A stretch of DNA of 64,000 nt. Origin: Flaccisagitta enflata (taxonomy: Eukaryota). The translations under genes were made by a program, and so were the position numbers. Location: positions 38,874,001-38,938,000 of the forward strand of contig OZ231126.1 of NCBI GenBank assembly GCA_965153355.1. The letters run 5' to 3'. Below the pieces are notes generated by a model. The model worked only from the letters and a program-made list of their open reading frames with translations. It searched no databases and was not told where the DNA came from. Each line of letters begins with the position of its first letter. Positions within the stretch are counted from its first letter, which is position 1. Shown one piece after another: positions 5,160 to 64,000 of the stretch.

Positions 5160-5171
5160 TAACATATCTAC

Positions 5172-19037: not shown

Positions 19038-19039
19038 TA

Positions 19040-19363
19040 GCATAACAAGAGTTCATACAAAGTCATAGGAAAGTTCTCTATCAAAGGGATATGACTCAAA
19101 ATCATGTATACATACAATCCACAACAAAAAATTGCCCCTGGGACCTCTCAAAATTACCGCCGCCACCCCCCTCATATCCCATAGAAAATGTACAGGAAGG
19201 ATATTTGCCTATGTTTTACTATGGGAAAGGGGGCAGGTGGCGGCGCCAATTTATAGGGGTTCCAGGGTTAAATTTTTTTCAGGAACCATCTGTAAACATG
19301 ATTTTGGGCCATATCGCTCTGATAGAGAACTTTTCTATGAAATCGCATTAATTATTGTTAGGC
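19040..19363. mobile_element. Diverged palindromic MITE inserted in the 12-bp satellite
   Basis: cataggaaagttctctatca...aaaatcatgt is inverted as acatgatttt...tgatagagaacttttctatg; exact ends uncertain. Confidence 0.7.
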
Positions 19364-19710
19364 GATTAGTGATCCTGTTAGTGATCATGTTAGTGATATC
19401 ATTAGTGATCGCATTAGTGATCATGTTAGTGATCATGTTAGTGATTGCGTTAGTGATCATGTTAGTGATCTCATTAGTGATTGCGTTAGTGATCATGTTA
19501 GCGATCTCGTTAGTGATCGCGTTAGTGATCGCGTTAGTCATCATATTAGTGATCATGTTAGTGATCTCTTTAGTGATCGCTTTAGTGATCTCGTTAATAA
19601 TTGAGTTATTGATCATGTTAGTGATCTCGTTAGTGATCACGTTAGTTATCATGATAATGAACTCGTTAGGGATCACGTTAGTGATCTGGTTAGCGATCAT
19701 GTTAGTGATC
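19364..19710. repeat. 12-bp GATC satellite, right fragment (more diverged)
   Basis: Same unit continues up to the junction with the 40-bp array. Confidence 0.95.
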
Positions 19711-21315: not shown

Positions 21316-21354
21316 CTTACTCCCCCCTCACACACACATACACAAACACATAGA

Positions 21355-21800
21355 ACTAGTCATCCAAGGATCGCACATGGTCATGGCACTGATGCCCAAG
21401 TTGAGCGATCCAGTGAAAAAGTGAGTGAGAGAAAGGGGCCCTAAAGGGCCAATGTCCTGTAGAACACAGGGGGGAATTTCGAGACGTCCGTCCGTCCTGA
21501 GGGCGCTCTAGATGGCTGATTTATGCCACTGAAGGCATATCTTAGGGTTGGAGGGCATAATAAAGGCTTGGAGAGCAGATTTGAGATTTGGTAGGTTGGT
21601 TTTAAGCTTGGAGGGCTGATTGAAGGTCTGGAGGGCAGATTTGAGGTCTGGAGGGCAGATTTGAGGTCTGGGAGGCAGATTTAGGGCATGGGAGGGGGGC
21701 TGATTTGGAGCCAAAAGGTTCGATTTTAGGCCTGGAGGGCTAAATTGAGTCCTGGGAGGGCTAATTTGAGGCCTTGATGGTCAACGGGGGGGGGGGGCAG
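21355..21800 (-). mobile_element. Family B element, partial
   Basis: actagtcatccaaggatcgcacatggtca end shared with 40980; 21-bp gagggcagatttgaggtctg repeats. Confidence 0.7.
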
Positions 21801-22724
21801 ACAGATGTTTTTTTACATGTTAAAAGCCTGATTATTATCATAGAGCTTTGAATATGTTGCTTGATTTCTTAAGCAAACCCAAAAATGAAGTTTTTCTTAA
21901 TGAAAAGTTACCAATCTTCTAAAGAAAATCAAAAAAATTGCAAAATGGAAGTGTTTAAATGTTCATTTGGTTTTAGTTCAATTCACTCAGATCTAATAGA
22001 CAGAGAAAGGCCACTCTTTCAGGGTTTTGCTGCGCCCAGCATCTACCATACTACTATCTAGATCAAAAGTATGTCGGCAATATAAGAATCAGGTTGCATA
22101 TCCATTAAATTATTAAGAAAACATTAATGAAACACATGTGATACTTTCTTTGAGTCTCGTGAACATCAAAACATATCATCAATTTCATCGATATGCTTTT
22201 TAGTCGTGGACACGCAACTCTACACCTTACCGTGTCGGTCGGTATGTCGGTCCGTTATGAATTTTGTTGAATTCTGAGCGATTATAGCATAACGGCCCCT
22301 GCCTAATCGTCCGCGACTGTTTTGCCGTGTATCCGGCCTTGTTTAGATGTATTTTGAAGTAGGACGACACAATCTCCTCTCATAACTTGAAAGCAGATTT
22401 TTTAAAGCCCATGCTCAATGGTGTGTGCTCCCCTATCTGTATGTGTCTCCAAAACACTATCTAACACGACACCGGGTTAAGAAGGTAAAGGGATGTGTCA
22501 TGACTACCCTTCGGCGTCAAATAAGCAGCAAAAATTTCCTTAAATAGCTGAAAATATTGTTTAGTCAAGTGCGGTAACTGACAGGAAATGAATTATCATT
22601 TTTTTGCCAATTTGCTTTTGGAGTAGCGCTCTTGTTTTACTTGTCATTTCTTAACAAATTGAGTTGATGTAGTTTCAGAATCTCACCGATTGAAATCTTA
22701 GAATCATTTCTCCTTTCCAAGCTT

Positions 22725-22975
22725 TTTAGTCGCGTGCAACGTGACTCTACACCCCGCTTTGTCGGTCCGTACGTCGGTCTGTCGGTCCGTCTGTCCGTCA
22801 GTCCGTTGGTCCGTTGGTCCGTTGGTCCGTTGGTCCGTCAGTCCGTCACACTTTACTTTTTTTTGTTTTTAGCGGTCTTTGGCCTCACTGCTGCTGCCCA
22901 AATGATCAAGTGACCTCAAAAACAGCCCCTGCCCACCCGCACGCGACTGGGGTAGCCATGTATCCGGCCTTGTTT
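22725..22975 (+). mobile_element. DINE-1/HINE-like element (family A)
   Basis: Same ends and (gtcc/gttg)n core; a shorter variant lies at 22198-22343. Confidence 0.88.
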
Positions 22976-23442
22976 CACACATGTAGCGCCCTCTTACACT
23001 ATTGTTGATCAATGGTTATCTCTTTTGAGTCTCTGAAGCCATTTGCATATTCTCCCTCCAAGTCTACATCTGTGACTTTGGCCAAAATCCATCCACTTTT
23101 GTTTTAAATTCGTTTTAAATTTGTTTATTTCGTTTTAAATTCGTTTTTGATTGTGAATAACCAATTCTATTCTACTTATTTTGTTGCCCAGAATAGTCTC
23201 TGATAAGCCTAAAATAAGTGAAGCATGTCAGACTTTCTCCATGTTTTGGGACTCCGATAAAAGTGTCTGTGATTTTATACATTTTCATTACAATCTTCAC
23301 ACATCAATGAAAATGTGTTCTGTTTTTCTAATTTTCTCTTTTTCTCTTTTTTCCCCCTTTGAGTTCCCTCCCCATCTCCAGACCCTTTGATTTCCCCCCC
23401 CCCCCACGGGGGAATATACAGGCCTGTATAATAGTTACAGAT

Positions 23443-24513
23443 TTTTAGTCGCGTGAACGCGACTCTAGAAGCCGCTATGTCGGTCGGTCGGTCTGTCGGT
23501 CGCTCTGTCGGTCGGTCTGTCCGTCACACTTTTGAAATATAGCGTAATTCTTCATTTTAAAGGTACTTAAGGGTACTCCTGAGTACTTAAAGATACTTTA
23601 GGGTACTTTAAGGTACATTAGATACTTAAGTACTTAAGTACCATAGGGTACCGTGTCATCCACCTGAGTTGTCGGATTCTGTTAAGCTTTTACTCTTTGA
23701 TGCTAAGAGACATGGATTTGAAATTGATCAAGTCTTAAAGAGTATAGATTGACATTTTTTTTATCAAAATTTCAGCGATTTTGGTCAAGTGGTTTGTCTT
23801 TTACACAAATTTGAAGTGCTACAAGTATTTTCCCATCTTAAAGATTTTCCATTAGACAAAAGGAATTCTGCTTGCCTCCGTTTTCACTTTCTTTTTCGCT
23901 ATTCATATCAAAGAGACAAGATTGATCTGAAATAAAAGATAAACTGACTAAGTTATTAAACCACTTCAAAATTTTCCCTGATTAAAGCTTTTTTTGTATT
24001 GATGGCGTATATGACTCAAAAAGAATTGCGATGTTAATTTGCACAGTTCCTGGAATTAATTGGAAATTCTGCTCAGTCCTGAAATGAAAGCTTTTACTTC
24101 ATATTCATGTTGAAGACAAACTACTTGACCAAAATGGACGAAATTTTGACACAAAAAATGTCAATATATACTCTTTAAGACTGGATCAATTTTAAATACA
24201 TGACTTTTTGCACCTGTGAGTAAAAGCTTAACAGAATCCGACAACTCAGCTGGATGACCCGGTACTTCAGAGTATTTTACGTACTAATGGATACATTAGG
24301 GTAGTAAAGGTATCTAAGGGTACTTAGGGTACATTAGAGTTCTCCAGGTACTTAAGGTACTTAAAAAGTAATACAGGATAATTTAGGGTACTTAAAGGTA
24401 ATTAAGAAAGCCTTATTTCACCTTTATTACCTTTATTACCTTTATTACCTTAATGACCTTAATTATCTATATTACCTTTATTACCACGCGACTAAGGTTT
24501 GTTGACCTTGTTT
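23443..24513 (+). mobile_element. HINE-like element with ggtactta minisatellite core, interrupted by a MITE
   Basis: ttttagtcgcgtgaacgcgact start; cacgcgact...ccttgtttt end at 24485-24513. Confidence 0.7.
23651..24262. mobile_element. Tc1/mariner-type MITE
   Basis: TA|CCGTGTCATCCACCTGAGTTGTCGGATTCTGTTAAGCTTTTACTC ... GAGTAAAAGCTTAACAGAATCCGACAACTCAGCTGGATGACCCGG|TA. Confidence 0.88.
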
Positions 24514-24653
24514 TAAATTCGATCTAAAGACGGTGTATTCTTATTCTAAATATCTTTTCAGGCGAGTTTCCATCATCAAGAAAATGTTTGGAGATATGTT
24601 GCAGCACAACCAAAAGGTCACTCAATCGGACCATTGGGGGTCAGAGCTGGTGA

Positions 24654-27154
24654 GTTTCCAAAATCAATCGACATCTCAAACTAATCAAATCAAATCCTCA
24701 TGATGATTTTGGTGGTCTAAATATTGTTTTGTATGGTGATCCTTATCAACTGGGACCAGTGGCGGACAAGCATATTTTTGAGTATGATGCCAAAGATCCA
24801 TACGGCATAATTTCAGAAGGAGTACTCTTTGAAAATTTTTGTAGCTTTGAACTGACGGAAATTATGAGACAAGCGGACAAAATCTTACAAGATGCTCTTT
24901 GTGATTTGTCTGATGCGTCCACTCCTATGTCTGCCCAAAATGTTGCCCTTTTCAAGAGCCGAGTGAAGAACGAAGAGGATTTGAAAATTGAACCTCACAT
25001 GAGAATTGACCTATTCGCATTCAATGCGGATGTGAATGCTCACAATGATCAGCTTATTGCTGAAGTTAAAGGGGAATCGCATTTGGTTGATGCAGATTTG
25101 TCAATCATGGGTGATGAAACTAAGGCAGTTAAAGACAAAGTAAAGCAGGCCATACGAGACAGACATGACCATACTGAGACAGTCGGACTTAGGCTTCATG
25201 TTGATTACAAAGTTGGCGGGCGGTATTCTATTCCCGTTAATGTTGACTTGACTGATGGACTTGTCAATGGTGCCATAGGTACTTTGCAACATGTTGATAT
25301 TGATAGCCAAGGTAAACCGATCACCTTGTGGGTTAAATTTGACCATGAAGAAGTTGGCAAAAATCGCCGACAGTTACTGTCAAACAATCAACGTTACAAG
25401 CAACATATCCAAAATGGCCTAACGCCAATTTGGAAAGTTGCAAAAAATTTTCCAACTTGCAGGAAACGTTTAACAGGACGAGTTGTGTGTTTTCCCTTGT
25501 ACTATGCGTATGGTTTTACCATATGCAAAGCACAAGGAAATAACCACATTGGAATTCAAACTATTGTCCATCTAAATGCAAGAAGGAAAATTCCTCGGCG
25601 CCAAAAGTGTATGTTGCTTTCTCACGGACGGACAAAATTGACAATTTAACAATCATTGGGTCTTTTGAAGACCCATGGTTTCGAGAGGAAGAAGCAAGGA
25701 AGAAGTCTAGAGGTCAGATTAGAGAGGATGAAATAAGGGATGGTTATGGTAAATTACTGGAAAAAAAAGTTTTGTTGACTTGGAATCCCCTGTACAACAT
25801 ACAAAATTGCAACAGAATTATATCCTTTTTCAATGTCAATTCATTACACTGCCACATAAATGATGTAAAAAATGATTTCAGTCTTTTGGCATCTGATTTA
25901 ATCTTTTTTATAGACACAAGACTGAAAAAAAATGAAATTCTTAGTTTACAAGGATATAATTTCGTTGTTGGTCTTTGCATGAATAATGACAAACGTGTAC
26001 CAGGGGGAATATGTTTGTATGCCAAGTCAAATCAGAAGGTTTGTATCATAAAAGATGTAAACATCCAAGAGAACGGATATTACTATCAGGTAATCATATG
26101 TTCAGTGGGAGATTTGGTAATCCTTGGTCTTTATTTCAGCCCCAAGTGTTTAATGAAACATAGGGTCGAGTGTCTCCAAATAGCTTTGAAAGAAGTAGCT
26201 AGTTGTAAGGGAGATATTCTTATTGGTGGTGACTTCAATTGCAACACATGTTTTGACATTCTATCTGAAAATAGTTTCATCCAACTACCCTTAGATGAGA
26301 CAACAAGGTTTGCCACCAACATTGATCAAATGTACATCAAGACAAATAAGGAATATATTTTTGGTTGCAATCCTTGTTACTATAGCGATCACAATCCAAC
26401 ATATTTTGGGTTTAAATCTGTAGTTGATGATGACATGGATGTATTTGGTGACATAGACTTACCAACAATGGATACAACTTCTGGTGATCTTTCTCAAATT
26501 GATGACATGGATTGCTCTTCTGTGACTGATACAATTGGTTGTAATATGTTTAAAAGTGACAGGATGAGTGCTGGAACAGATGGCCAGTTTGCCTCTTTGC
26601 AACTGCCTGTGAATAAACATGCCCATGTTATTGACAGACTTGACTCGCGATCATCAAATGACCTCATTCAATTCTTGAACTGCCATGATTATCTTGTTAC
26701 CAACTGTAATAGCACTACTCAAATCGGTAACAGTTGTGGTTACATATGTGCCAGTATTGCAAGTTATGTCTATCAATCGCAACAGGATTCTTGGATATCA
26801 TTTGGTAAGTATGATCATCCAAGCTATCATCCAGATATAGTAGCATACAATTACATACTCAACATAGATCGCAGTGATGCGCAATTGCTAGACTCAGTGC
26901 AAATATTGAAGTTAGTCACTAGTTTGACTGGTGACCCCAATTTAAAGTGGTTTTTGGTACAAGATGTCAACTTATTTAAATCATTAGTGACATCTGATTT
27001 TAAGGATATTTCATTCCCTAAAAATGGTCAAAAGAAATGGGCAGTGTTTACTATCAATGATGCTATATTGAGCAATGAACAGAGAAAAAAAAATGTTCAG
27101 TCAAATGTCTGTGTTGGATCACACTGGTATACGGTTGTGATTGATATTGATTGA
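24654..27154 (+). pseudogene. 5'-truncated Helentron/Helitron polyprotein: PIF1-type helicase C-terminal half, EEP (APE-like) endonuclease, papain-like cysteine protease; one frameshift near 25600
   Basis: Helicase motifs FGGLNIVLYGDPYQLGPV, LTEIMRQ, DGLVNGAIG, AYGFTICKAQG and, in the -1 frame, YVAFSR; endonuclease motifs FNVNSL, GGICLY, YFSP, GDFN, IDQMY, SDH; C-terminal QIGNSCG...GSHWYTVVID. Rep domain and Walker A/B are missing. Confidence 0.9.
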
Positions 27155-30091: not shown

Positions 30092-30273
30092 TTTTTAGTC
30101 GCGTGCACGCGACTCTACAACCCGCTCTGTCCGTCGGTTGGTCTGTTGGTCGGTCACGCTTAGCTTTTTTTGGCATTTACGGGCAATTTGGGGGTTACTG
30201 CTCCTGCCCAACTTTTTCATCATTGCCCCTGCCCACCCGCATGCGACTAGGGTAGCCGTGTATACGGCCTTGT
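30092..30273 (+). mobile_element. DINE-1/HINE-like element (family A)
   Basis: ttttagtcgcgtgcacgcgact ... gccgtgtatacggccttgtt. Confidence 0.88.
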
Positions 30274-30314
30274 TGACTAAAAGAGTTACTTTCGCTAATT
30301 TGGGGAGATCCAGT

Positions 30315-36072: not shown

Positions 36073-36273
36073 TAACAAGGCCAGATACATGGCTACCCCA
36101 GTCGCGTACGGGTGGGCAGGAGCTGTATTTGAGGTCACTTAATCATTTGGGCAGGAGCAGTGAGGCCAAAGACCGCGAAAATAAAAAAAAAGTAAAGTGT
36201 GACGGACGGACGGACGGATGGACGGACGGACCGACAAAGCAGGTTGTAGAGTCGCGTAGCACGCGACTAAAAA
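36073..36273 (-). mobile_element. DINE-1/HINE-like element (family A)
   Basis: Same structure as 9363-9568. Confidence 0.88.
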
Positions 36274-44460: not shown

Positions 44461-45052
44461 TAGATCTTTTCTGTGCTTTACTTACAACAGATCAACGGAC
44501 AAGCCACACAACTTACCAGGACCTAACCAACAACAACAATGAGACTGACAAAAAAAGTGTAGATTTAAGAAAGCATGATTTATCAACACACTAAAGCACA
44601 AACAAAACGACGACTGACCGACCGACCGACCGACTGCGAATTGCAAGACAAACGAACCGTCCAAAAAGACCAAAAAGACCTACGAATGCACTGGCTCACA
44701 CAAATCTACGAATCCATGAGACTGACGATTCTTTTGCGGCAAATCCAACACACACGATTATAATCCATTTTTTTTTTTCACCCTTTTCAGCTTCACGTTT
44801 CGGACCCCATTTTCCCCCAAAGCAATCATTTCTCATAAAAAAGCTGTTTCTTTCCTTTTCAAGGAGGGGGACAGCCCGCAGCATGTCCTGTGGGGGTCAA
44901 AAGCGACGGAAGAGGAGTAGGAGCAGGTGGAGGAGAAGAAGGATGAGGAGACGAAAGAGGAGAAGTAGGAGAGGAGTAGATAATAAGCAGTTTCAATGCT
45001 TCAGATGCAATGCCAAAGGCATCCAGAAGGAAGTAGCAAAACAGTTTCACCT

Positions 45053-46375
<1,323 letters not shown>

Positions 46376-47013
46376 ATATACACCCGCCTATTCATGAAAA
46401 TTGCCCCCAAGAGATGTCGATGGTGAGGAAGCTAACACAGACTCGTAACTGCTATCGCAACTACGCTTATACTTCAGATGACACGCCCCTTGTCCGAAGA
46501 ACCCCCTTCCTCAGCCTAACCCTGCCAACTGTTCCAACCCCTGCTTTTGCAAATATGCTTTTACTTATGACAGGCCTCTTGTCCCAAGAACCCCCCTGTC
46601 TCAGCCTAACCCTGCCCACCGTTCAAAACCCCTGCTATCGCAGATACGCTCATTCTTATGTCACACACGCATTGGCCCATGCACCCCTTGTCTCAGCCCA
46701 ACCTTCAGACCATCGCAACTTCGCAATATCTCAGATGAAACACTCCTTGTTCCGAGTCAATAGCTCGCTGCAGCGCAGCGCATCGATTCCCACTGCCCCG
46801 ACCCCCTGCCATCGCAAAACGCAAATACGCTTAGATCTCAGATGACACACTCCTTTTCTCAAGAACTCAGCTGTTTCAGCTCAATCCTGCTCACTGTTCC
46901 AACGCCCTGCCATCGCAACCTCGCTCATACTTTAGTTGATACATTCCTTGGACTCAGGAGCCCCCTGTCCTACCCCACCTCTGCCCTTTTACCCGACCCC
47001 GCGCCAATGTAAA

Positions 47014-52963: not shown

Positions 52964-53469
52964 CAGTCAGTGGACAAAACAAAATAGGTAGTGAGCTGAC
53001 TCTGTTGGCTTTGATCCAACTTACTGTTATCAAACAGCAGGCTGTAAACAATAACTGGTTGTAAAAATTACAGCCGGCTGTCATGCTACAAAGTCGGCCA
53101 AAATCTAACTTTCACCAAATAGAACGAGACCTGCAAATTCATAATCCTGGTGAAATTCTGACAAGTTTGATATGTCATAATAAATCTTTTTATCAATGTT
53201 TGATAAAGTTATAATACAATGTTTAAAGATTATTTCTTATAAAAAGTGTTAAGTGTGACATGTCAAACTTCTCAGAATTTTATCAGGATTATGAATATGC
53301 TAGTCACGTTCTATTCTATTTAGGTTGGATTTTTGCCAACTTTGTAAGATAAAAGCCGGCTGTAATTTTCACAACCAGTTATTGTTTACAGCCTGCTGTT
53401 TGATAACAGTAAATTGGATCAAAGCCAACAGAGTGAGCTCTCTACCTATTTTGTTTTGTCCACTGACTG
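52964..53469. mobile_element. Palindromic MITE (CAGTCAGTGGACAAAAC family)
   Basis: cagtcagtggacaaaacaaaataggtag / ctacctattttgttttgtccactgactg; no clean TSD seen. Confidence 0.85.
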
Positions 53470-53488
53470 AGAATGCCTCGCCCATGTA

Positions 53489-53845
53489 CAGTACGCCGAT
53501 TGCATCCCGGGACTTTGCTTAATCGCTCTCATGCGCCCCTTCATAATGTGACACTCACAATTTTATTTCAAACGAGCCAATGTGCAGCTTTCTAGCTTGG
53601 TGGGAACCTTTTTTAGGGCCTGTTTAAAGTTTACATTAAAACTAATGGGAAAAAATCCCCTTAAGAATCCCCTTAAGAAAATAAGTTACTTTTATTTTCA
53701 TTGTTAATTTCAAATCTACCCTAAAAAAGGTTCCCATCAAGCTAGAAAGCTGCGCATTGGCTTGTTTGAAATAAAATCGTGTCACATTACAAAGGGGGCG
53801 CATGAGAGCGATTCAGCTAAGTCCCGGGATGCAATCGGCGTAATG
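53489..53845. mobile_element. Palindromic Tc1/mariner-type MITE
   Basis: TA|CAGTACGCCGATTGCATCCCGGGAC ... GTCCCGGGATGCAATCGGCGTAATG|TA. Confidence 0.88.
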
Positions 53846-54901
53846 TACAGTCTTGGCTGCAGCACCGACATAGATCTTACATGTTTATCTCACGGTTGAG
53901 TAAGAAATATCTGACTCTTTTGCTAAGGATTAGATCTTCAAAACGAAAATTTGATCAATTGATAAATGGCTGATTTCTTGCTGGAGTTGGCGCCAATATC
54001 AAAAAGCCGTCAAACGCTTATTTAACAAAAACAAGGCCATCACCTATCAGTCGCATAATGATCATAGAAAAACACTTATTACTTTTTTAACTATTCTAAA
54101 TCCCTTAAACGCTTTTCAACTATTTTAACCCTATTTTAAAACTATCTTTCAACCCTTCTTGACCCTTTTAAACCTTTTTTAAAACTCTTTATGACAACAA
54201 TTTTTCGAATTTAACAGATTTTACCTTTTCAAAAAAAAGCATAAGATTCTTATCATTATTTACCTCTTTTTGACACATTGTAGGAATTTTAGACCTCTAA
54301 TCCTACCTTTTTTTACAAAACAAGCCCGACCGGGCAACGATGTGTCCTGACCGTGTCACTGTGTGGGGTGAATCTCATGATGACGATCATGATGACCACG
54401 ACATTGACGGAGAATTTGAGTGAGGGTAAGGGAGTGCGAGGGCGAGAGCGAGGGCGAGATGCAGAATTGCAGATGGAGAGAGCTTTTCCTTTCATGTGTG
54501 ACATCCCTGCGGTTGAAACGTGTGAAGAAATGCAGAAGGACGGACAGGCAGATAGACGGACGCATGGACAAATCCTCTGATAGAGATGCATTCCTGGCGG
54601 ACACATATTAAAAAGTAAAATTGACTGAATGACAGACAAACCAACAAACTGACAGAGGAACAGACAGACAAACCCACTGACCGACGGAACGACGGACCAT
54701 CAGGCACAGCGGGTTATAGAGTACTGCGGCACGCGACTTAAAGTTAAAAAAAACATTCATGAGTACTGGTTAATAAAAATTCAGAGGAAGAAAGAATGTA
54801 TTCGGAGGGGAAAATCAAAAGGGGACAATCTCACAATATAAACAAGGCCGGATACACGGCTACTCTAGTCGCGTGTGGGTGGGCAGGAGCAGTGCTGGAG
54901 A

Positions 54902-55406
54902 AGTAATATAATTGTGTTATGCATAAATGAAGACCCCTGGATGAATAGAGATGTCCCTGATATCAATCATGTACAGATGTAATTAAGATGTCATTGTGCA
55001 AGGTAAAGTCCTTGGTGTAAATGGGTAAGAGGTGAACTATATCAAAAACCACCTATGATATGTCCTTGATAATAATGGTTTTGTGCTGAAGGACAAGGCA
55101 CGTGGCTCACGAGCCCAACCTCCTCTTTCCTCTTCCTCATCATTGCTGTTATTAAACTGTTTGCTGTAGTGAGGGTATATAAGTGAGGATGATCCAGCCT
55201 CTGTACATTCATTCATTTTGGACCGTCATCCTCCAACTAATCCATCATACTCTGGGCCCTGAAACCTTTCTTGGATAGAAGGTAACTGATATTTGACAAT
55301 AAATACTGCCGTGTCTTTAATCATTAGTAATTATTAGCAATAATTAAGATACCATAGCAATCAGTAATAGGAGTAACTCAAGCCAGCTAATTTAGCCCTT
55401 TTTACT
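54902..55406 (+). mobile_element. Putative 5' LTR (505 bp) of a Ty3/gypsy-like element
   Basis: Begins where a family A HINE (54841-54901) is cut off; inverted termini AGTAA...TTACT; TATATAAG at about 55176, AATAAA at 55298; immediately followed by a TGG-initiated PBS. The second LTR is not in the window. Confidence 0.75.
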
Positions 55407-55417
55407 TGGCGGCAGCG
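55407..55417 (+). promoter_or_regulatory. Primer-binding site TGGCGGCAGCG
   Basis: TGG complementary to tRNA CCA, directly after the LTR end; resembles a tRNA-Leu-type PBS (TGGTGGCAGCG) with one mismatch; primer identity not established. Confidence 0.7.
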
Positions 55418-55525
55418 AAAATTCGATTTATAGCTTTTATTATTTGATTTAATTGTCATTATTGGTCTGTCCTTTATTTCCTTGGGGGTGTAAGGGCCAT
55501 ACTCGAACTTCCAGCCGCTTGAACA

Positions 55526-58156
55526 ATGGCGACGGGCGACGATGATCCGGAGAAGAACAAGACTCCCTCCAACCGTCAACCTCCAGATAAGCGAATGTTC
55601 AACAGCGCAAATAATTTGGACAATTGTCCCCAATACCATAACATTGGGTTAGACATAGTACGCACTCAATCGGTGCCACATAATCTTCATGCCATACATC
55701 AAAACATAATGGCAAACGGCACTTTTGGATTGGCACGTCCTCAATCGCATGATATGTTAAATCCATTTGCATTCATGCCTATTAGAGAAGAAAATAAAAG
55801 ATCAGACGAAGATAACGGAGAAATAGAGGCTCAAGATTTGCCATCTCGATCTAGGCCTCATGGTATTAATCCCTTACCACCAATACCATTTGAGATCCAT
55901 CTAGACGAATCTACAACTGAAGCAAGAGCATCTGCTTCGGCGTCTCAGCTCCAACAAGGAGCGAAGCCACAATCGGGAATGATGCTGGGTAGTCACGCTA
56001 CTCAGTCGTCACGTGGTGAGAAGCCTGAAGAACGAGCGCACGTTTCCTCTGTGGATAAAGTGGGCGACAATCGTGGTCTCAATTTCAACGACGATACCGG
56101 GAACGTTTCGGCGAATGAAGCGGGAGGCGATAATGTGGCTACCGCTGACGACAATCCAGAAGAGAAAACGTCATCACTTGGGAGAAAAATAAAGTCTCTT
56201 TTTACGAAGAAGGAGCGGCCTCCGTCTTCCTCATCTCGATTGGCCACCGGGTTGAACGAATTCGACGCAAGCTCCATTACAACTTCAACGCCAAAGATTA
56301 CAACGGTAAATGGAAAGAGACTGAAGGGAATGGCGCATATTTTTCAAATAAGAAATCACCATGGATACCGTCTGAAGGATTTTCAAAATCGAATTAGTGC
56401 TTACATACCTTGGAGAGGTTTTACCGAAGACATTGATAGAAAATTTACTAAATTTGATTCACCAGACACTGAAAAATTGAACTTTGTTTATAGTAAATTG
56501 GGTGACTTAGCCTCACCCATTGATGAGAATGGTGAATACTATATTTTTGCCGTAAAACAATATTTAAAGGTATCAATGTGTGAAACGTGTAAAAAGGATA
56601 AAAAATGCCAAGAAGATCACCACTTGCAAGCTCTTATAAATAACATTGATTTTTGTAAAAACATTGATAGAGAGATCACTACTCGTGACATTGATATCAC
56701 TCGTGATTTTCACTTAGTATGTACGAATCCACTACCTATTTTCAATAAACATAATCAAAGTAATGAAAATTTAGTAGTGCCTAATCTGATTGTTGTACCA
56801 AGTCACGATAGCATGGCACGAGTGCTTACATTTACAAAGATGAATCTGGATGATGAATCTTTTCATGCAATGAATAAGAACTTTTTTCCGTTGGGAGAAT
56901 TAACTGGTGACCCAACCAATGGATTTCAATTTAGACTTTTAGAAAAAGCCCCTGAAGGCTCCGTGATTATTCGAATCTGTCTCATTCTTAATCATTTAGA
57001 AACTGACATTTTTCAAGCTTTAGAATCACTTATGACCTCTGGTGAACCAAGAGAGATAATATCTGATGGCGTTTTGGTTCAAACTGTTCGACATTCTACT
57101 TATGCTCTCTTCTGTTTATTTAAAAATCTTAGACTTAAGAGAAATGTTGAACTAGATTCCGTCTTTGAATTTCGTCATTTAAGCATGAAATTTTTCAGTG
57201 GTGATGAATTAGGAAGAGTTAAAAGCTCACTTATCCCCTTTGGGTTAATAGCCATGTTTGTAAGACTTCACGTTGAGTCTCAGATTGATTTTGCAAAATT
57301 AAGATTAATTAATATAATCACAGAAAAACCAAACGAAGAGTTGGTTTTGGAAGGAAGTAACATATTCTTAAAAAATGATGAAAATCGCAGTCTCGTCAGG
57401 CTGGTGAACAGTGTTCATTTTCCTCCTCTGAACATGGAGATTAACTCGGTTTTGGGTGAATTCTATTTGAATATTTCCAAAGTTCTAAATACGTTGAAAA
57501 CGTCAGATTTGGTTGAAATGGGTTTGCCCAATGATGTTTGTCATCGTTTAAACGTGTTGGTTCAGTCTGAGGAAGACCAGTTTTTGAGAGACCGTGGTTT
57601 GTTCATAAATGAAACTGACTCCGTTCAGGAAATGGTACTTGATATGTTTCGCGATAAAAAAACAGAAGAATTTGTCTGTCCGACTCCTTTACCCTTTAAC
57701 ATTTTTCATGATTCTCAAAGGGACCGTAATTTTGATGGAAGCTTTGAATTGCCAGATTTTGAAATAAAAAGAATAAACAAAGTAGACCAAAATATACAAA
57801 AGGGCGATTCTGGGGGTGCAAATAAACATGTGTCTCAGTTAAATGTGATTGCGCCTGCTTCAGTTGTAAATGAGGGGTCAAACGTGAGACAAAATGAAGA
57901 TGTTTACCCTGTTAAACAGAAAAGGGTTGGGTTGAAAGAAAGAGTGATGACTGGTCAGGCTGAATTAACGCTACCTCCACCTTCACTGCCTGCAACCACT
58001 CAGTCAAGCAGCCTGCCTCCAGTCAGCAATGTAAATTCAACCTCACATTTCAGTCATGCACCTCACTCACATTTTTCTAAACCAATGCCTCAATGTGATT
58101 TGTCGGATTCAAATAAAAGTGAATCAAGGCTGAATGATGAGCCACCCATACACTAA
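55526..58156 (+). CDS. 876-aa ORF of unknown function inside the LTR element
   Basis: Long non-repetitive ATG-initiated ORF about 110 bp after the PBS; disordered-looking N- and C-termini around a globular-looking core; C-x2-C-x5-C-x3-H motif (CETCKKDKKCQEDH). No family recognised. Confidence 0.8.
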   Translation: MATGDDDPEKNKTPSNRQPPDKRMFNSANNLDNCPQYHNIGLDIVRTQSVPHNLHAIHQNIMANGTFGLARPQSHDMLNPFAFMPIREENKRSDEDNGEIEAQDLPSRSRPHGINPLPPIPFEIHLDESTTEARASASASQLQQGAKPQSGMMLGSHATQSSRGEKPEERAHVSSVDKVGDNRGLNFNDDTGNVSANEAGGDNVATADDNPEEKTSSLGRKIKSLFTKKERPPSSSSRLATGLNEFDASSITTSTPKITTVNGKRLKGMAHIFQIRNHHGYRLKDFQNRISAYIPWRGFTEDIDRKFTKFDSPDTEKLNFVYSKLGDLASPIDENGEYYIFAVKQYLKVSMCETCKKDKKCQEDHHLQALINNIDFCKNIDREITTRDIDITRDFHLVCTNPLPIFNKHNQSNENLVVPNLIVVPSHDSMARVLTFTKMNLDDESFHAMNKNFFPLGELTGDPTNGFQFRLLEKAPEGSVIIRICLILNHLETDIFQALESLMTSGEPREIISDGVLVQTVRHSTYALFCLFKNLRLKRNVELDSVFEFRHLSMKFFSGDELGRVKSSLIPFGLIAMFVRLHVESQIDFAKLRLINIITEKPNEELVLEGSNIFLKNDENRSLVRLVNSVHFPPLNMEINSVLGEFYLNISKVLNTLKTSDLVEMGLPNDVCHRLNVLVQSEEDQFLRDRGLFINETDSVQEMVLDMFRDKKTEEFVCPTPLPFNIFHDSQRDRNFDGSFELPDFEIKRINKVDQNIQKGDSGGANKHVSQLNVIAPASVVNEGSNVRQNEDVYPVKQKRVGLKERVMTGQAELTLPPPSLPATTQSSSLPPVSNVNSTSHFSHAPHSHFSKPMPQCDLSDSNKSESRLNDEPPIH

Positions 58157-58718
58157 GGGCGTTTTTTTAGTAATATGGCGAATAAACAATGAATTTTTTA
58201 TTTCAATTTTTGACTGATAGATCTATAGATAGGTCTTATGGAAAGTGATCCACACCAGTTTTGAACAATTCTTTATCTTGTATTGCCCAGAAAGTTACTT
58301 TAAGTAATGTTTTCCTCTTTACATCATTACTGAGACAGAAAAAAAATCCATTGCCGCCTTTTGCCATGGAAAGACTAGGCTCTATCTGTAGCTATGGCGA
58401 TAACGATTCTAGGTTCAAAATCTGAAGATACACTTTTTATCACTTTAGGAGTTATAGCACATGGAAAAAAGTTGCAATATCTGCTCATTGCATTATGGAA
58501 ATCCATCATCGCATCTTTCATCGAATTTTTCCCTTAAAAAACGGGACCAAAATGCAGCTGAGGAACAGCAGAGACAGCTGAGAGGCAGGAGAAGCTGCAG
58601 GGGAGTGAGAGTTTTTTGTTTTCATTGCACTTTTTGGCAATCAGAAGAGGCGGCCTCTTTGTGCAAAAGTGTAAACCATTGCTCTCACAGACTCCAGACA
58701 GATGGTACAGACGGGTAA

Positions 58719-59998
58719 GCATGCCCTATTTTCCAGTGTGCCATATATTCTTCACCAGCAAAAGATTCATCAAATGATGCTCCTGTTAATAATGAGATCA
58801 AAGGCAAGGTCAAAATATCGTTGCCACCAACGGAGCATTTGATTGAAAAGGTTTCAAGTATGACAGGTGAAGGAGAATGTAACGATTTTGATAAAAATCG
58901 AAATTTGGGTGAGAAATTGAAGGATCAAGGACAATTTGGTGATAAAAACAACATGTCCAAGGACAACATTGATCCATCAACTCGAGGTGCTCACTACATA
59001 TCCCCTGCTCAGTTGAGATCAAACGCGATTTTCGAGTTCAAGGATCTTGATAAAAACGCAAGTAAATTAAAAGGACAGGGGGCGCGTCAGAAAGATAAAA
59101 ACAAGAGTCATAGCAAAACATGTCAAGGAGGCATACTTAGAAATAAGAAAGACATCCATCCAAATTACGACGATCTGAATGGGATAATTGATAGCAAGAA
59201 CAAAATTAAAAATGATAAAGAGTTCTTGAATACTACTTTCACTAAGGGTGATGAACGGAGGACCAGATATAACAAGGCCATTGATGATAAAAAGTCAAAA
59301 ATCACGATGGACCGTGAACTTAGGAACGCGATGCGTCCTAGTGACAATCTCCCAATCTATGATAAAAGCAAAAAGTCAGAACTTTCAAAGATTGAAAAAA
59401 GTTTTAAAACGCATACAAATGATCTTTATTCCATCTGTAAAGAAAACAAGCAAAGTACAAAAACGAATTTTGATCATTCCATAAATAAAGATATACGTGA
59501 TAGAAACATGACTTATGCAAATCAGATCAATCATCGCCGCAGCTCTAGCCAGAACATGGTGTTTGGCAGTGGCCTTTGCCCTAATAACCATCAATTGAAA
59601 CCTGATCATGGGCCATTTGACTGCAATCTTTGTCACAAGCATTTTGATAATCACAAATGTTACATTTGTGAAAGTTGTGGCTATGAATTATGTTCATCTT
59701 GTTATGAGCCATTGAATTCTGGAAAAAAGTGGAAACCACGTGATAATGGCTCGAAACGCGCTCAGAGACGCCGGAAAAGCTCAAGTGAAGAAGATTCTGA
59801 AGATGACAAACAAAAGGGGCACAAACGTCACCATGGTAACCGACGTCGAAAAAATCGTAAGAATGACGGTGATGATGGTGATAGCAGTGACAATGGTGAC
59901 AGTGACAGTCATAATGGAGATGACAGAGGTCAAAACGGTGATAATAGAACCAGAAGAGCAGAGAGGAATGATGATGATGATGATGACGACCATCATGG

Positions 59999-60030
<32 letters not shown>

Positions 60031-61367
60031 GTGACGGTGATAGTAGTTATGATTATTACCGTGATAGTGACTCAGATAATGGGCAGAGAAAAAGAAGAAA
60101 TCGTGGTTACAATGCTGCCTTTAGCCGTCGTGTGCGCAGAAAGCAAAACAAGTTGAAGCAGAGAAAAAATCTTCTTGAATATCGTCAGCGCCTGATGGGA
60201 CCACTGAAAAAGTACAGTGTTACTGATGATTTTCAAATTTTCTATGACGACTTTCTGTTAAGAGTCAAATTCTTTCAACTACAGCCGTATGAAGCACGCA
60301 TCTATCTTATCACGCACATTCAAGACGAATTCATCAAGTCACAAATTCAACACATATTAAAAAATCATCCCGGAGCGTCACTTGACACACTTGGCACCCA
60401 CATTTGCATCGCACTAGGTGTGAAAAGTAAAGAATTGGTCTCAGCCGAGGGAGCTGGAATATCGCGCAAGACAAATGAAAACATATTCTCTTATGCCTTA
60501 AGAACTAAGGATTATAAGAATAAAGAAGTAATGGGTTATGATAACCCTGAGCAAATAATTAACACTGATTATTTTGCCATGGACATCTTACGCACATTCC
60601 AACGCGGTTTGCGTTCAAAATGGATGGTGTCTCAAATCGAAAAGAAGTCGTGCAAAAATCTGGATGAAGCACTTATTGTCCTCAATAGCAGTATGGCAAA
60701 ACAATTGAGAATTGATCAGCTCACAGGAAAGGACGAAATTTCTCTAGAGACGGATAAAAATCTGTTTGTCAACCCAAAGTCGTCCCAATATTATGCAAAT
60801 AACATCAATGAAGGCGACTTGGATTGGGATGGGAATCCTCTAAATGGAGAGGTCAATGCCATTAGTGGCATGTGTCCTAACTGTGGAAATTCCACAGATA
60901 GCCATATACAGGGGAAGTGCAAAGCATATGGAGTTAAGTGTCACAAATGTGGACAATATAACCATTTCTCGAGATGCTGCCCAAAAAAGGTGAAAATGGT
61001 CACCCAAACTACACCTGCCCAAATGAGATATGCCAAAAAATCGGCAAGACGGCGTGAATTGGATAAAAAAATGGTCAATGCTGCCATAGAGGAATCTGAC
61101 AATGAATCAAGTGCATCTGATGATGGAATTGAAGGAAGCGTGAAGAATTGTGCGCCACTAAATGACACTGAAAGTGATTCCGATCCTGAAATTGTCAATG
61201 CCATCAGGAGACTGAGAAAAAAATTTGGTGCAAAGAAGTTTGAAAAGGAGCTCAGGAGAATAAATGTCATTGAAGAGTCAATTAACTCAATCGCGTCATT
61301 GCCTTTGTGCCCGCTCGCTCCCTTTCTCCTAACCGGAGTTACAGTGACGACGCAATTAACGGTCTGA
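58719..61367 (+). CDS. Gag-like ORF with extra Cys/His finger, acidic/basic low-complexity linker, capsid-like region and double zinc knuckle
   Basis: Frame is open from 58719 (first ATG at 58860); CPNCGNSTDSHIQGKCKAYGVKCHKCGQYNHFSRC at 60873-60977 has the two-knuckle spacing of Mag-type gypsy Gag; RKTNENIFSYALR...FQRGLRS resembles the retrotransposon gag major-homology region. Confidence 0.8.
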
Positions 61368-61904
61368 AATAATTTATTAGCAATCATTAGTAATCAGTGG
61401 TAACTTAGGCAATGAGCACAGTAATAATTAGTGGCAATCATAAGTACACCAATTTACATCTTTGCAAGGCTTAGTACCTGAAACTTCAACTCATTTCGGC
61501 ATTCAGGGAACCAGAGGGTAAGTAATGCTAATCAATTCATCATTAATCTGCAAAGGATGGAAAAAGAGTAACATTAGTAGGCTTATTTACTCCTAATCGC
61601 GAATAAACAATGAGAGCGAAGGAATAAAGACGAGCGAATGGACTAAACAGCAGGTAAACGCTCTTATAAGGAAATTCTCATGGCATGTATCATGAATCCC
61701 AGCTCAGCTTCCGTTCAATTCGAAGCGGTGAACTACTAATAGAGGGCGTTGCTAAAAGGGTAAGTTTTAAGGGCAAAGTAAGGTCTTAAAACAAATGAAC
61801 AGTGCTTGCTCACGCGAGCCCGCACACCCCCCACCTGGACTGTAAAACATGTCCAGCACAAGCATGAGAAATCGTAAGCGCAAGCTTGAAAAATTGTAAG
61901 CGCA

Positions 61905-62586
61905 AGCTTGAAAGCGTGAAAGCCAAAGGCCAAACTTGAAAGCGTGAAAGCCAAAGGCCAAACTTGAAAGCGTGAAAGCCAAAGGCCAAACTTGAAAGCA
62001 TGAAAGCCATAGGCCAAACTTGAAAGCGTGAAAGCAAAAGGCCAAACTTGAAAGCGTGAAAGCAAAAGGCCAAACTTGAAAGCGTGAAAGCAAAAGGCCA
62101 AACTTGAAAGCGTGAAAGCAAAAGGCCAAACTTGAAAGCATGAAAGCAAATAGCCAAACTTGAAAGCATGAAAGCAAAAGGCCAAACTTGAAAGCATGAA
62201 AGCAAAAGGCCAAACTTGAAAGCATGAAAGCAAAAGGCCAAACTTGAAAGCGTGAAAGCAAAAGGCCAAACTTGAAAGCGTGAAAGCAAAAGGCCAAACT
62301 TGAAAACATGAAAGCAAAAGGCCAAACTTGAAAGCATGAAAGCAAAAGGCCAAACTTGAAAGCGTGAAAGCAAAAGGCCAAACTTAAAGCGTGGAAGCAA
62401 AAGGCCAAACTTGAAAGCATGAAAACAAAAGGCCAAACTTGAAAGCATGAAAGCAAAAGGCCAAACTTGAAAGCATGAAAGCAAAAGGCCAAACTTGAAA
62501 GCATGAATGCAAAAGGCCAAACTTGAAGCCATGAATGCAAAAGGCTAAACTTGAAAGCATGAATGCAAAAGGCCAAACTTGAAAGC
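61905..62586. repeat. 28-bp tandem array (gccaaacttgaaagcRtgaaagcaaaag), about 24 units
   Basis: Period 28 (62041 to 62069); highly homogeneous. Confidence 0.97.
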
Positions 62587-63649
62587 TAGAGCATCGCAAT
62601 GCCTGAAATAACTCTCTTTATCTTATCAAATGTTTTGGGGAATTAATTACCCATCCTACTTAAAAATGAAAAGATCGCGAGGAAAAGATTGGGGCAGTCA
62701 CGATATTAAAGAGGGGAAAATTCCGTTCAAACAAAAGAGAATTAACCAAATCAAAATCTTATACTTTAAAGTAGTTGACTCAAACTACTGTCAACAAGGA
62801 AAAGATGAATGTAAGCATCGTAAACTTGAGGGTAGTTGCTGACGCAAACTCTTTGTCAACAAGAGAGAATGTACATGAAATCTTAACTTGCTTATTTTCA
62901 TGAACGTTAGAAAAGCTTACAAGCATCATTAACTTCAGGGTGGTTGTTGATGCGCAAATCAACAATGGAAAAAAGCAATCGCAAATTAAATGTAGAAAAT
63001 TTAAGCACCTCTAACTTCATTGTGTAGTAGATGCAAAGAAAATGCTTGAAACTCAAAAATGGAAAAAGTAAGCGTCATTAATCGCAATGTAATTGTTAAC
63101 GCAAACAAAAACTTTTTCCCCTCCCACCCCCCACGTCCTTCATTCCATGTAAATCTAACCCAAAGAACCAATGCCCGACGGCGAGTTGCAGTTGGAGAGA
63201 GTAGGAAAAGGTCGAAGGAGCGGAGGTGTAGCAGAATCGTTGACGCGTAAACTCGTACAAGAGCAGCGTGCAGGAGCGTCGAATTGTATCGTATCATAGG
63301 GGCTTATCACTGAAGCCATATTTCTTATCATAGAGGGCGGGCTCTTCCATCACTAGAGCAACTTTCATTGAGACTTGACGCACTTTTACCGTCGGCAAAT
63401 TGAAAGAAGGAAAAATGCAAAATCAATGAGAGCATAAACTAACTGACGAGAAAGAGCTAAAAAGAGTGAGAGTATAAAGAGCAACAATGAAAATGTTATC
63501 ACTAAAATGCCGTCTTCTCTTCGTCGAATTGAGCGAAGCTGCCTAAGATAAGCATTGAACTCATTCTCACTTTTTCTTCCCTTCATGATGACGTAGCGTT
63601 GGTAACGTAATCGGAAGGCCCGTGACATCGTTGCCGCGGGAAAAGGCTT

Positions 63650-63972
63650 GGGGTGGCGGCCGGGAATCTTGTGGGGTGGCGGCCGGGAATCTTGTGGGGT
63701 GGCGGCCGGGAATCTTGTGGGGTGGCGGCCGGGAATCTCGTGGGGTGGCGGCCGGGAATCTCGTGGGGTAGCGGCCGAGAATATCGTAGCGTAGCGGCCG
63801 AGAATATCGTAGCGTAGCGGCCGAGAATATCGTAGCGTAGCGGCCGAGAATATCGTAGCGTAGCGGCCGAGAATATCGTAGCGTAGCGGCCGAGAATATC
63901 GTAGCGTAGCGGCCGAGAATATCGTAGCGTAGCGGCCGAGAATATCGTAGCGTAGCGGCCGGGAATCTCGTG
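63650..63972. repeat. 23-bp tandem array with two unit types
   Basis: ggggtggcggccgggaatctYgt (about 5 copies) then agcgtagcggccgagaatatcgt (about 8 copies). Confidence 0.95.
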
Positions 63973-64000
63973 ATTGTGGCCCGTAGAAGCATGGTTGTGG

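Follow-up and report, generated by a model that had tools for sequence, protein, structure and literature searches.

A long open reading frame in Flaccisagitta enflata is probably the N-terminal half of a divergent retroelement Gag frame

What is an intact reading frame of 876 codons doing ahead of a gag-like coding region? The window analysed here is a stretch of 64,000 nucleotides from Flaccisagitta enflata (assembly GCA_965153355.1, contig OZ231126.1, positions 38,874,001 to 38,938,000 of the forward strand), and the frame in question, ORF1, occupies 55526-58156 on its + strand. The original prediction described it as an orphan protein in the first-ORF position of a retroelement, sitting where gag is normally translated, and suggested a captured or novel accessory protein. 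In our opinion, ORF1 is probably the N-terminal half of one very long Gag frame (Gag-Pol in the relatives) of a divergent LTR-type retroelement. As to the architecture, we consider it very likely that a single Gag frame, running from a conserved core through CCHC-type knuckles, was split by an insertion.

The open frame and the repeat that ends it

ORF1 runs from ATG to stop over 876 codons, encoding 876 amino acids; a stop codon stands in frame immediately 5' of the ATG, and the stop-to-stop frame starts at 55523. The start context, AACAATGG, is good, and the protein begins MATGDD. GC over the frame is 0.38-0.41, and the computed chance of 876 open codons at this base composition is about 4e-26. 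The original prediction was thus right that an intact ORF over 2.6 kb of AT-rich DNA is improbable by chance. Its 3' end is a different matter, as the stop codon TAA (58154-58156) lies within an inserted repeat. The features around the break are the following.

57773..58150, + strand: poorly conserved linker, whose last native codons are P-P-I
58146..58150, no strand assigned: CCATA, left copy of a direct repeat, a putative target-site duplication (from the sequence)
58151..58740, no strand assigned: dispersed high-copy repeat of 590 bp, inserted (metagenome depth, contig ends and one skipping contig)
58741..58745, no strand assigned: CCATA, right copy of the direct repeat (from the sequence)

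The metagenome word depth is 1292-2749 over 58138-58871, as against 4.6-9.3 in the coding bins, and repeat contigs terminate precisely at 58151 and at 58740/58741. One marine-metagenome contig joins 58145 to 58741 and skips 595 nt (5 letters fit either side); it is one contig from one run, with a depth of 12.2 and 79 letters on its shorter side. This contig could stem from a paralogous copy instead of the same locus. Since 595 leaves a remainder of 1 when divided by 3, skipping the segment turns the frame of ORF1 into that of the downstream ORF (ORF2), which is open from 58743. Both flanks of the insert are one frame, and the description of ORF1 as a first ORF does not survive, its 3' end being set by the repeat. 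The insert contributes the last codon and the stop of ORF1, and the stop-to-stop frame downstream also takes a spurious, TTG-less start from it. In all likelihood ORF1 and ORF2 are two here because a repeat insertion interrupts a single frame.

No terminal inverted repeats were found on the 590-bp insert, and no further copy of it was found within the window. We rejected an intron at 58146-58740, as this stretch is a dispersed repeat and GT..AG appears at none of the 6 cut positions that are possible.

One could also suppose that the metagenome sequence lost the 595 nt through a microhomology-mediated deletion, and that the two ORFs were ancestrally separate. Such a deletion also leaves a 5-bp direct repeat at both edges. 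However, what would have been deleted is a dispersed repeat in its own right, about 150-600 times as deep as its flanks, at whose edges independent repeat contigs terminate exactly; the exact fusion of two frames would need chance, and relatives at 47-61% identity run unbroken through the region. We regard this scenario as extremely improbable.

One frame in the relatives and a dead copy in the window

Contrary to its description as an orphan, ORF1 has a family. A word-index homologue search at near lengths gave zero matches, which an exhaustive HMMER search proved to be a false negative: the latter finds 39 relatives at E<=1e-3, 26 at <=1e-10 and 13 at <=1e-30, which are unnamed marine sequences. 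At greater lengths the word-index search returned no long fused relative (>1533 aa). The relatives allow the window to be read beyond the insert as follows.

58743..61307, + strand: very probably the same Gag frame continued, the downstream 'gag' ORF of the original prediction (frame arithmetic; homology to the relatives P0049, P0004 and P0056)
59130-59147, + strand: conserved basic motif GILRNK in the downstream frame
59577-59711, + strand: Cys/His finger in the downstream frame
about 59970-60041, + strand: acidic tract in the downstream frame
from about 60171, + strand: capsid-position region, so named by position only
60873-60920 and 60939-60980, + strand: two CCHC-type knuckles, read directly in the window
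61308..64000, no strand assigned: unrelated repetitive DNA in place of protease/pol (end of homology, rise in depth)
61791-62667 and 63583-63996, no strand assigned: tandem arrays of 28-bp and 23-bp units respectively (repeat scan)

P0049, an uninterrupted protein of 1113 aa, aligns with 56330-58006 of the window at 61% identity and also with 58983-59777, in the other frame of the window, at 53% identity. The frame can be followed further by tiling, as P0049 and P0004 overlap at 98.8% over 417 aa and P0004 and P0056 at 88.8% over 107 aa. In P0056 the knuckles are followed by a DSG-type aspartyl-protease-like stretch (E 0.002, below the cut-off) and then by a reverse transcriptase with a YLDD motif (RVT_1, E 4e-8, 33.6 bits against a cut-off of 29.6). 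The DSG stretches of P0003 and P0056 match Asp_protease_2, RVP_2 and gag-asp_proteas, all under the Pfam cut-offs; a comparison of P0056 with PDB sequences gave just one unrelated bZIP chain (E 0.7). In other parts of the frame, the Cys/His finger of the relatives has a weak C1_2-like match only (E 0.03-0.05, below the cut-off), and the zf-CCHC_2 match in P0003 is weak as well (E 0.012, below the cut-off). Six of the relatives analysed continue for 100 aa or more beyond the core, and a G[IV]L..[KR] motif of the ORF2 type is present in five of them (P0049, P0006, P0014, P0053 and P0061). The exception, P0015, lacks a gag-linked motif; its cluster-mate P0053 has one. The term LTR-type refers here to the gene order in the relatives; neither an LTR pair nor an integrase or RNase H was found.

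The retroelement context that had been proposed is borne out, given the CCHC-type knuckles in the downstream ORF and the relatives that run on into a protease-like stretch and a reverse transcriptase. With regard to location, the original prediction was correct in placing ORF1 upstream of the capsid and nucleocapsid part, and incorrect in separating it from gag, of whose frame it is probably the N-terminal part.

It may still be argued that ORF1 is an independent accessory protein, made from its own ORF ahead of gag like the small upstream ORFs of the MDG1 group. In the assembly, ORF1 does stand apart, with its own ATG in a good context and its own stop codon, and some LTR elements have accessory ORFs upstream (bioRxiv 10.1101/2025.03.14.642691). 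An accessory ORF has its own stop and is translated separately; on the contrary, the stop codon of ORF1 falls within an inserted high-copy repeat, P0049 is unbroken from the core into the ORF2 homologue, and the ORF2-type motif stands in the same protein in five of the six long-enough relatives. We therefore find such a protein highly improbable and do not retain the captured or novel accessory protein, whose frame is continuous in P0049 and split by the repeat in the window. Nor did any finding favour host-gene capture, anti-silencing or RNA binding, which had been suggested along with it.

What is the state of the copy in the window? On the 5' side, metagenome and metatranscriptome contigs match rightwards from 54903/54904 and diverge leftwards, which delimits one more feature.

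54904..55525, + strand: non-coding leader 5' of the ATG, which may represent the element's 5' end, either LTR or 5' UTR (contig matches)

The leader holds TATATAAG at 55176-55183 and a PBS-like string with an initial TGG at 55408; the window contains no tRNA genes for comparison with this string. No LTR direct repeat beyond 20 nt was found between 54700-55525 and 61367-62000, the 3' part being either missing or beyond the window, and no LTR pair was found within 54000-64000. On the 3' side, a tblastn search of the window with P0056 and P0003 shows homology ending at 61307 with no further match, protease and reverse transcriptase being absent. Metagenome depth climbs to 80-2400 from about 61306, and the repetitive DNA beyond 61307 provides the downstream ORF with its last 20 codons and its stop. 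Since homology ends there and other repeats begin, this copy is without protease or reverse transcriptase. It is dead, both interrupted and 3'-truncated.

The original prediction took the long open frame as a sign of recent activity or selection. A second version, P0059, is differently disrupted and is set apart from the copy in the window by 6 substitutions and a single indel of 3 residues in 662 residues. In our view a young copy accounts for the open frame better than selection at the locus does, P0059 being nearly identical and the copy in the window both interrupted and 3'-truncated. No related loci were confirmed in JGI metagenome contigs and IMG/VR. As for expression, the portion of one polyA RNA run that was sampled (about 6%) had no reads over the coding parts, a lack of detection that does not imply absence, and metatranscriptome contigs covered none of the coding parts, only the repeats and 54904-55423.

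In metagenome depth the coding parts (4.6-9.3) do not exceed the adjacent unique sequence (4.7). This low copy number, the lack of pol in the window and the conservation of the core down to about 25-30% identity would all suit a domesticated gag-derived host gene, or a host domain recently fused to gag, that is not part of a mobile element. Yet the frame is broken by a repeat and truncated at 61307, and RNA reads were not found in the sample above. Further, close relatives retain protease-like sequence and reverse transcriptase in the same frame, the near-identical and differently disrupted P0059 is what one expects of transposable element copies, and P0015 is the only long-enough relative without a gag-linked motif, which its cluster-mate has. 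A host gene is in our opinion very unlikely.

The conserved core

What does the N-terminal half of this frame encode? Its parts are the following.

55526..56140, + strand: N-terminal tail of Gag (residues 1-205), low-complexity, disordered and unconserved
56141..57772, + strand: family core (residues 206-749; 39 aligned relatives, conservation map and AF2 model)
56288..56761, + strand: N-subdomain (residues 255-412), predicted alpha/beta (AF2 pLDDT 90.5, pTM 0.85)
56579..56620, + strand: CX2CX5CX3H motif, a putative single zinc site (C352, C355, C361, H365)
56780..57667, + strand: C-subdomain (residues 419-714), acidic, with predicted beta-hairpins and long helices (AF2 model)

Before the core, the relatives carry unrelated tails of about 120-340 aa, and AF2 pLDDT is below 50 where the modelled part of ORF1 begins. 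Over the core the model has a mean pLDDT of 81.6, with 328 of 544 residues at 90 or higher; the confident part, alpha/beta, covers residues ~255-714 (460 aa) and forms two subdomains. This agrees well with the roughly 480-aa mixed alpha/beta core that had been anticipated. The CCCH-like motif that had been noticed is indeed present and kept across the family: in the family alignment, conservation reaches 90% for the first and second Cys and the His, and 70% for the third Cys. The only conserved cysteines of the core are in the N-subdomain, which has exactly three Cys in 11 of 16 members. We infer from this pattern that C352, C355, C361 and H365 may bind zinc. The motif belongs to a near-invariant polar cluster of the N-subdomain, comprising E..NF..S..G..AS, C..C.....C..DH and, downstream, D, N and R.F. 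The two subdomains differ in charge: the net charge of the N-subdomain is zero or positive in 13 of 16 members, and that of the C-subdomain is negative in all nine members covering it.

The AlphaFold and Foldseek analysis recommended in the original prediction produced a confident model and no match: a Foldseek search of the whole-core model against PDB and BFVD gave none at E<=0.001. With VIA, the best of 48,161 PDB representative chains reached Z 6.1 against the whole-core model, barely beyond one helical hairpin, and a second look at 994 chains gave a best Z of 5.2. The N-subdomain model found a single chain at Z>=2 among the same 48,161 representatives (Z 2.0), and its best Foldseek E was 1.9. 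The C-subdomain was modelled as part of the whole core, and its fold matches are just helical-hairpin (Z<=6.1). There is no enzyme class among the fold matches of the core or the N-subdomain, and no MA chain among the fold matches listed. The ESM Atlas returned no usable match for the whole ORF1 protein or for residues 255-720. Sequence searches were similarly negative: Pfam gave sub-threshold noise only on ORF1 and ORF2 (no Pfam gag family) and no recurring family across 37 members, and PDB sequence searches with the ORF1 protein and with a profile returned nothing below E 0.1. Judging by these models and searches, the core appears to have no detectable relative among Pfam families or solved folds, a statement that is least secure for the C-subdomain; it accords with the earlier remark that the core carries no recognised retroelement motif.

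A module in the matrix position

The linker after the core deserves attention. In P0049 and P0006 it contains two PPRY motifs each, while in P0014, P0053 and P0061 PPxY is absent from it. In the window, P-P-I precedes the insert and the first codon after it is Y. The linkers of the window and of P0049 have no significant alignment around the break (best E 0.53), and their PPxY correspondence would be one at motif level only. NEDD4-type ligases have PPxY as a ligand (PMC2958808).

This arrangement invites comparison with retroviruses. In orthoretroviral Gag (murine leukaemia virus, Rous sarcoma virus) the order is MA, L-domain peptide (PPPY), CA and NC. The likeness consists in a folded N-terminal module, a loose PPxY linker (in P0049 and P0006), a capsid-position region and CCHC knuckles, with a protease-like stretch and reverse transcriptase in the relatives. 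There are also differences. Retroviral MA has a small helical fold of about 100-130 aa and an N-terminal Met-Gly myristoylation signal that is not universal. The module here is predicted to be alpha/beta with a CCCH site, measures about 540 aa, roughly five times as much, and does not start with Met-Gly (MATGDD in the window; MENV, MSRS, MTPS, MSAF and MNLN in relatives). In addition, a finger, a basic motif and a long acidic tract stand between the module and the capsid-position region. Among the matches listed, we found no fold or sequence similarity of the core to any matrix protein. The missing Met-Gly start, the large size and the failure to find a fold match that supports any function speak against a matrix-like role.

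Among LTR retrotransposons, Ty3/gypsy and BEL/Pao elements are similar in having CCHC knuckles, as in the window, and a DSG protease-like stretch followed by reverse transcriptase with YLDD, as in P0056. Our lineage is very divergent from them, with a reverse transcriptase match of just the 33.6 bits given above, a protease match below the cut-off and no Pfam gag match. To our knowledge, a Gag N-terminal extension of about 1,300 aa far exceeds anything in either group. Upstream of gag, the Drosophila MDG1-group elements 412 and Stalker2 carry sORF1 and sORF2, of about 110 and 70 aa, which the authors link to cell-to-cell transfer (bioRxiv 10.1101/2025.03.14.642691). As described there, these resemble our case in adding coding capacity before the capsid part of an env-less LTR element, but they are separate and small, whereas a 540-aa domain lies inside the Gag frame here. 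Plant Ogre/Tat elements have an ORF1 of unknown function, separate and upstream of gag. Going by this general description, it is likewise a large uncharacterised coding region before gag in a Ty3/gypsy-like element; the core, in contrast, is within the Gag frame. In the literature surveyed, mainly titles and abstracts, there was no description of a comparable Gag N-terminal domain or of PPxY in a retrotransposon Gag.

What might the core do? It would occupy the matrix position, upstream of the PPxY late-domain motif and of the capsid-nucleocapsid part, and because of this position we tentatively take it to serve Gag structurally, in targeting or assembly, as an analogue of matrix held together by one zinc site. 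Such a module would position or organise Gag ahead of particle formation, and the PPxY motifs would recruit NEDD4-type ligases. The argument is one of position and analogy, and the function it suggests is possible, though doubtful. A more specific version, in which the core is an undescribed fold acting as a membrane-, trafficking- or cargo-targeting head of Gag and, with PPxY, gives an env-less lineage of marine eukaryotes its own budding or cell-to-cell route, strikes us as improbable as it stands.

The same architecture can be kept with a core that is an enzyme or a module acting on nucleic acids, such as a metal-dependent nuclease or an RNA-modifying or RNA-binding domain. Extra enzymatic domains do occur in retroelements, the near-invariant polar residues cluster in the N-subdomain, and this subdomain is mildly basic in most members. 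Nevertheless, there is neither a recurring Pfam family among the 37 members nor a PDB sequence match, no fold match points to any enzyme class, and three Cys and one His suffice for a purely structural zinc site. We hold this reading to be unlikely.

There is a practical lesson in this locus: a small repeat insertion that splits one frame can mimic an orphan ORF before gag. The Gag of LTR retrotransposons usually has little beyond capsid and nucleocapsid, and the combination of an N-terminal targeting module with a late domain after it is regarded as retroviral. The lineage described here, known only from marine sequences, puts a conserved domain of about 540 aa before the capsid position, together with a Cys/His finger, an acidic tract and, in some members, PPxY. 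We infer that the core gives Gag a new N-terminal module at the place of matrix, seen here in a dead copy; its function can be suggested from that position. If the core is an enzyme, it would represent a new retroelement activity. If it is the targeting head considered above, a 'matrix' function would have been invented independently outside retroviruses. And if it targets or organises Gag in any manner, it would bear on how retroelements gain virus-like exit routes.

One Gag frame and the insert that splits it

The analysis concerns two reading frames and two short sequences that relate them:
55526-58156, forward strand: ORF1, ATG to stop, 876 codons
58821-61367, forward strand: downstream ORF, in a frame other than that of ORF1, stop-to-stop from 58719
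58146-58150 and 58741-58745, no strand: CCATA direct repeat
59130-59147, forward strand: basic motif G[IV]L..[KR], within the downstream ORF

The original prediction held that so long an intact ORF is unlikely by chance, and indeed the probability of 876 open codons at local composition (GC 0.38-0.41 around ORF1) is about 4e-26, so ORF1 is genuine. An in-frame stop lies directly 5' of its ATG, and the stop-to-stop frame starts at 55523. The proposed retroelement setting is also reasonable, given two CCHC-type knuckles inside the downstream ORF; Pfam has no family for either ORF. The observation is thus partly confirmed and the interpretation partly supported, because what was described as an orphan first ORF is instead part of a split Gag. 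Relatives, metagenome contigs and frame arithmetic all agree against a separate ORF.

The related database protein P0049 (1113 aa, a member of P0005's 90% cluster) aligns to 56330-58006 at 61% identity and, uninterrupted, also to the downstream ORF's frame at 58983-59777 (53% identity). It overlaps P0004 (98.8% over 417 aa), which overlaps P0056 (88.8% over 107 aa), where knuckles are followed by a DSG stretch and then RT. The aspartyl-protease matches of the DSG stretch all fall under Pfam cut-offs; the RT matches RVT_1 at E 4e-8 (33.6 bits, cut-off 29.6) with YLDD present. Between the protease-like stretch and the RT start, P0056 has about 250 residues (~465-730), outside the window and with no Pfam match, of which part looks beta-rich; they are a further uncharacterised piece of this element lineage. 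Six stored relatives reach at least 100 residues past the core (ORF1 residues 206-749), and five of them (P0049, P0006, P0014, P0053, P0061) have the basic motif; the sixth, P0015, departs from its cluster-mate P0053 before that position.

The insert is a high-copy repeat at 58151-58740. When contigs of the marine metagenome run X3 were compared with 53000-64000, word depth was 4.6-9.3 in coding bins versus 1292-2749 on 58138-58871, and insert-repeat contigs from three runs terminate at 58151 and 58740/58741. A single metagenome contig (depth 12.2; its shorter side has 79 letters) links 58145 to 58741, omitting 595 nt, with the five letters of the CCATA repeat fitting either side; this joint is one contig from one run, reported as "between: not known", and its source may be a paralogous copy. 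Codons start at 2 mod 3 in ORF1 and at 0 mod 3 in the downstream ORF, and the 595 nt (595 mod 3 = 1) account exactly for this offset. From 58743 onwards the downstream ORF's frame is open. The ORF1 stop (TAA, 58154-58156) and the opening part of the downstream stop-to-stop frame both fall within the insert. No possible cut position yields GT..AG, hence the insert is not an intron; neither terminal inverted repeats nor a second copy within the 64-kb window were found.

State of this copy and its surroundings

Similarity to P0056 and the related P0003 stops at 61307, and the rest of the window has nothing matching their protease or RT parts. From about 61306 metagenome depth climbs to 80-2400 and the sequence consists of repeats, including two tandem arrays:
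61791-62667, no strand: 28-bp tandem array
63583-63996, no strand: 23-bp tandem array

Since homology ends there and repeats follow, the downstream ORF too ends in foreign sequence, which supplies its 20 final codons and its stop. This copy is interrupted once by the insert, and its 3' side is truncated or interrupted again. The window showed no LTR pair. Left of ORF1, metagenome and metatranscriptome contigs agree rightwards from 54903/54904 and diverge leftwards, and this boundary may be the element's 5' end.

Expression of the coding parts was not detected: ~6% of a single polyA RNA run gave 0 reads on them, and none of the metatranscriptome contigs fell there, which is non-detection only. 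Metatranscriptome contigs of two runs cover the leader 5' of the ATG (54904-55423) with few differences and leave the coding parts uncovered; transcription of a leader or LTR, additional solo copies or carried-over DNA may be the cause. All or part of the stretch is listed for 19 runs, drawn from 9 studies and for the most part marine metagenomes; only 3 of the 19 carry half or more of its words.

The window has several other features. At 24654-27154 (forward strand) two overlapping-frame ORFs of 331 and 536 aa resemble a degraded protein of Helitron/Helentron type; one includes a piece similar to PIF1 helicase (E 2e-5, 24.6 bits, narrowly below the cut-off of 25.9), the other a weak endonuclease match (E 0.003, below cut-off). 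A unit of ~60 bp occurs about 11 times (54841-54903 and some ten more, e.g. 9361-9411, 30211-30274, 36074-36126), and its word depth in one marine metagenome run is close to 1e5; often preceded by tetranucleotide runs of (GGAC)n type and by a "CAAAGC..GTAGAG" string, it resembles the terminal part of a highly abundant repeat associated with SINEs or Helentrons. Adjacent palindromic MITE-like units lie at 52964-53469 and 53485-53849 (arms of 228 nt, 86% complementary, and of 55 nt, 95% complementary); the two bins spanning 53000-53733 have a metagenome depth of 8,800-26,000, which drops to ~1,200 on 53734-54100. Tandem repeats whose periods are 8, 12 and 40 nt are unusually frequent and create long spurious ORFs on either strand and in several frames (e.g. 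17583-19040, 19335-20885):
4814-5228, 10364-10855, 17685-19050, 19590-21050 and 44972-46400: tandem-array regions

Finally, a 356-aa stop-to-stop frame at 15362-16432 (forward strand), with a long coiled-coil-like N-terminal part and weak sub-threshold Pfam matches only, could be left over from a TE, such as a LINE ORF1-like sequence.

The conserved core

A word-index search of 5.8 billion proteins returned no match to ORF1. Contrary to the original claim, it is nevertheless not an orphan: an exhaustive phmmer scan, covering 1.84 billion cluster representatives, gave 39 relatives at E<=1e-3 (26 at <=1e-10, 13 at <=1e-30), all of them unnamed proteins from ENA or Logan assemblies. They match residues ~206-749; outside this span, the tails of different members bear no relation to one another. 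The CCCH-like motif noticed earlier is a family feature, since C352, C355, C361 and H365 fall in the best-conserved block of the family alignment, E..NF..S..G..AS.I.....Y..FG...Y..V..C..C.....C..DH.L.....D. In 11 of the 16 members covering the N-subdomain, the motif cysteines are its sole three. P0059, a second near-identical version, differs from residues 152-813 by 6 substitutions (2 in the 544-residue core) and one 3-residue indel, and has a translated (GGAC)n-type repeat in place of residues 1-151.

The structural check suggested in the original prediction gave a confident core model but no known fold. AlphaFold2, run on residues 206-749 with a 37-row family alignment, reached mean pLDDT 81.6 and pTM 0.62, with 328 of 544 residues at 90 or above. 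The modelled N-subdomain (~255-412) is alpha/beta (alone, pLDDT 90.5 and pTM 0.85) and has a net charge of at least 0 in 13 of 16 members; the modelled C-subdomain (~419-714) comprises beta-hairpins and long helices and is acidic in all nine members that cover it. Foldseek against PDB and BFVD gave no match at E<=0.001. Using VIA against 48,161 representatives, the best Z for the whole core was 6.1, spanning little beyond a helical hairpin, and the N-subdomain matched a single chain, at Z 2.0; when 994 Foldseek candidates were re-examined, the highest Z was 5.2. No known fold was therefore found with the whole core and the N-subdomain as queries, and, as the search tool itself warns, weak or missing matches are no proof of a new fold.

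Order of the Gag frame and its possible role

Along one Gag frame, the parts run in this order:
1: disordered tail
2: core
3: loose linker
4: basic motif
5: Cys/His finger, with a weak C1_2-like match in relatives
6: acidic tract
7: region in capsid position, a label of position and not of fold
8: two knuckles
9: protease-like stretch and RT, in relatives

Orthoretroviral Gag is laid out as MA - L-domain - CA - NC, and in this order the core would occupy the place of matrix. In view of that position we tentatively suggest, with low confidence, that it is a zinc-stabilised targeting or assembly module of Gag. The chief competing function, that of an enzyme or of a module acting on nucleic acids, is in our opinion only slightly less likely. 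By no test run is the core a member of the matrix family.

The linkers of P0049 and P0006 each have two PPRY motifs. In this copy the insert is preceded by codons for P-P-I and followed directly by one for Y, hence it sits in a PPxY-type motif. Given that the linkers of this copy and P0049 show no significant alignment and that PPxY is absent from P0014, P0053 and P0061, the correspondence is at motif level only. PPxY motifs act as late domains, to which NEDD4-type ligases bind (PMC2958808).

In working and gene order the element resembles LTR elements of Ty3/gypsy or BEL/Pao type: knuckles are present here, RT and a protease-like stretch in relatives only, and LTRs and integrase were not seen. 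Ogre ORF1 is an upstream accessory ORF, and the ORF1 of the window is not one of that sort. It is likewise unlike the upstream accessory ORFs sORF1 and sORF2 of MDG1 (bioRxiv 10.1101/2025.03.14.642691). The literature searched contained no account of a comparable Gag head, nor of PPxY in the Gag of a retrotransposon. The element is of a known type and carries a large, conserved domain at the N terminus of Gag, undescribed so far. What remains of the orphan ORF, once it is read as a split Gag, is a conserved Gag-head domain, new to description, in an uncharacterised marine retroelement lineage.
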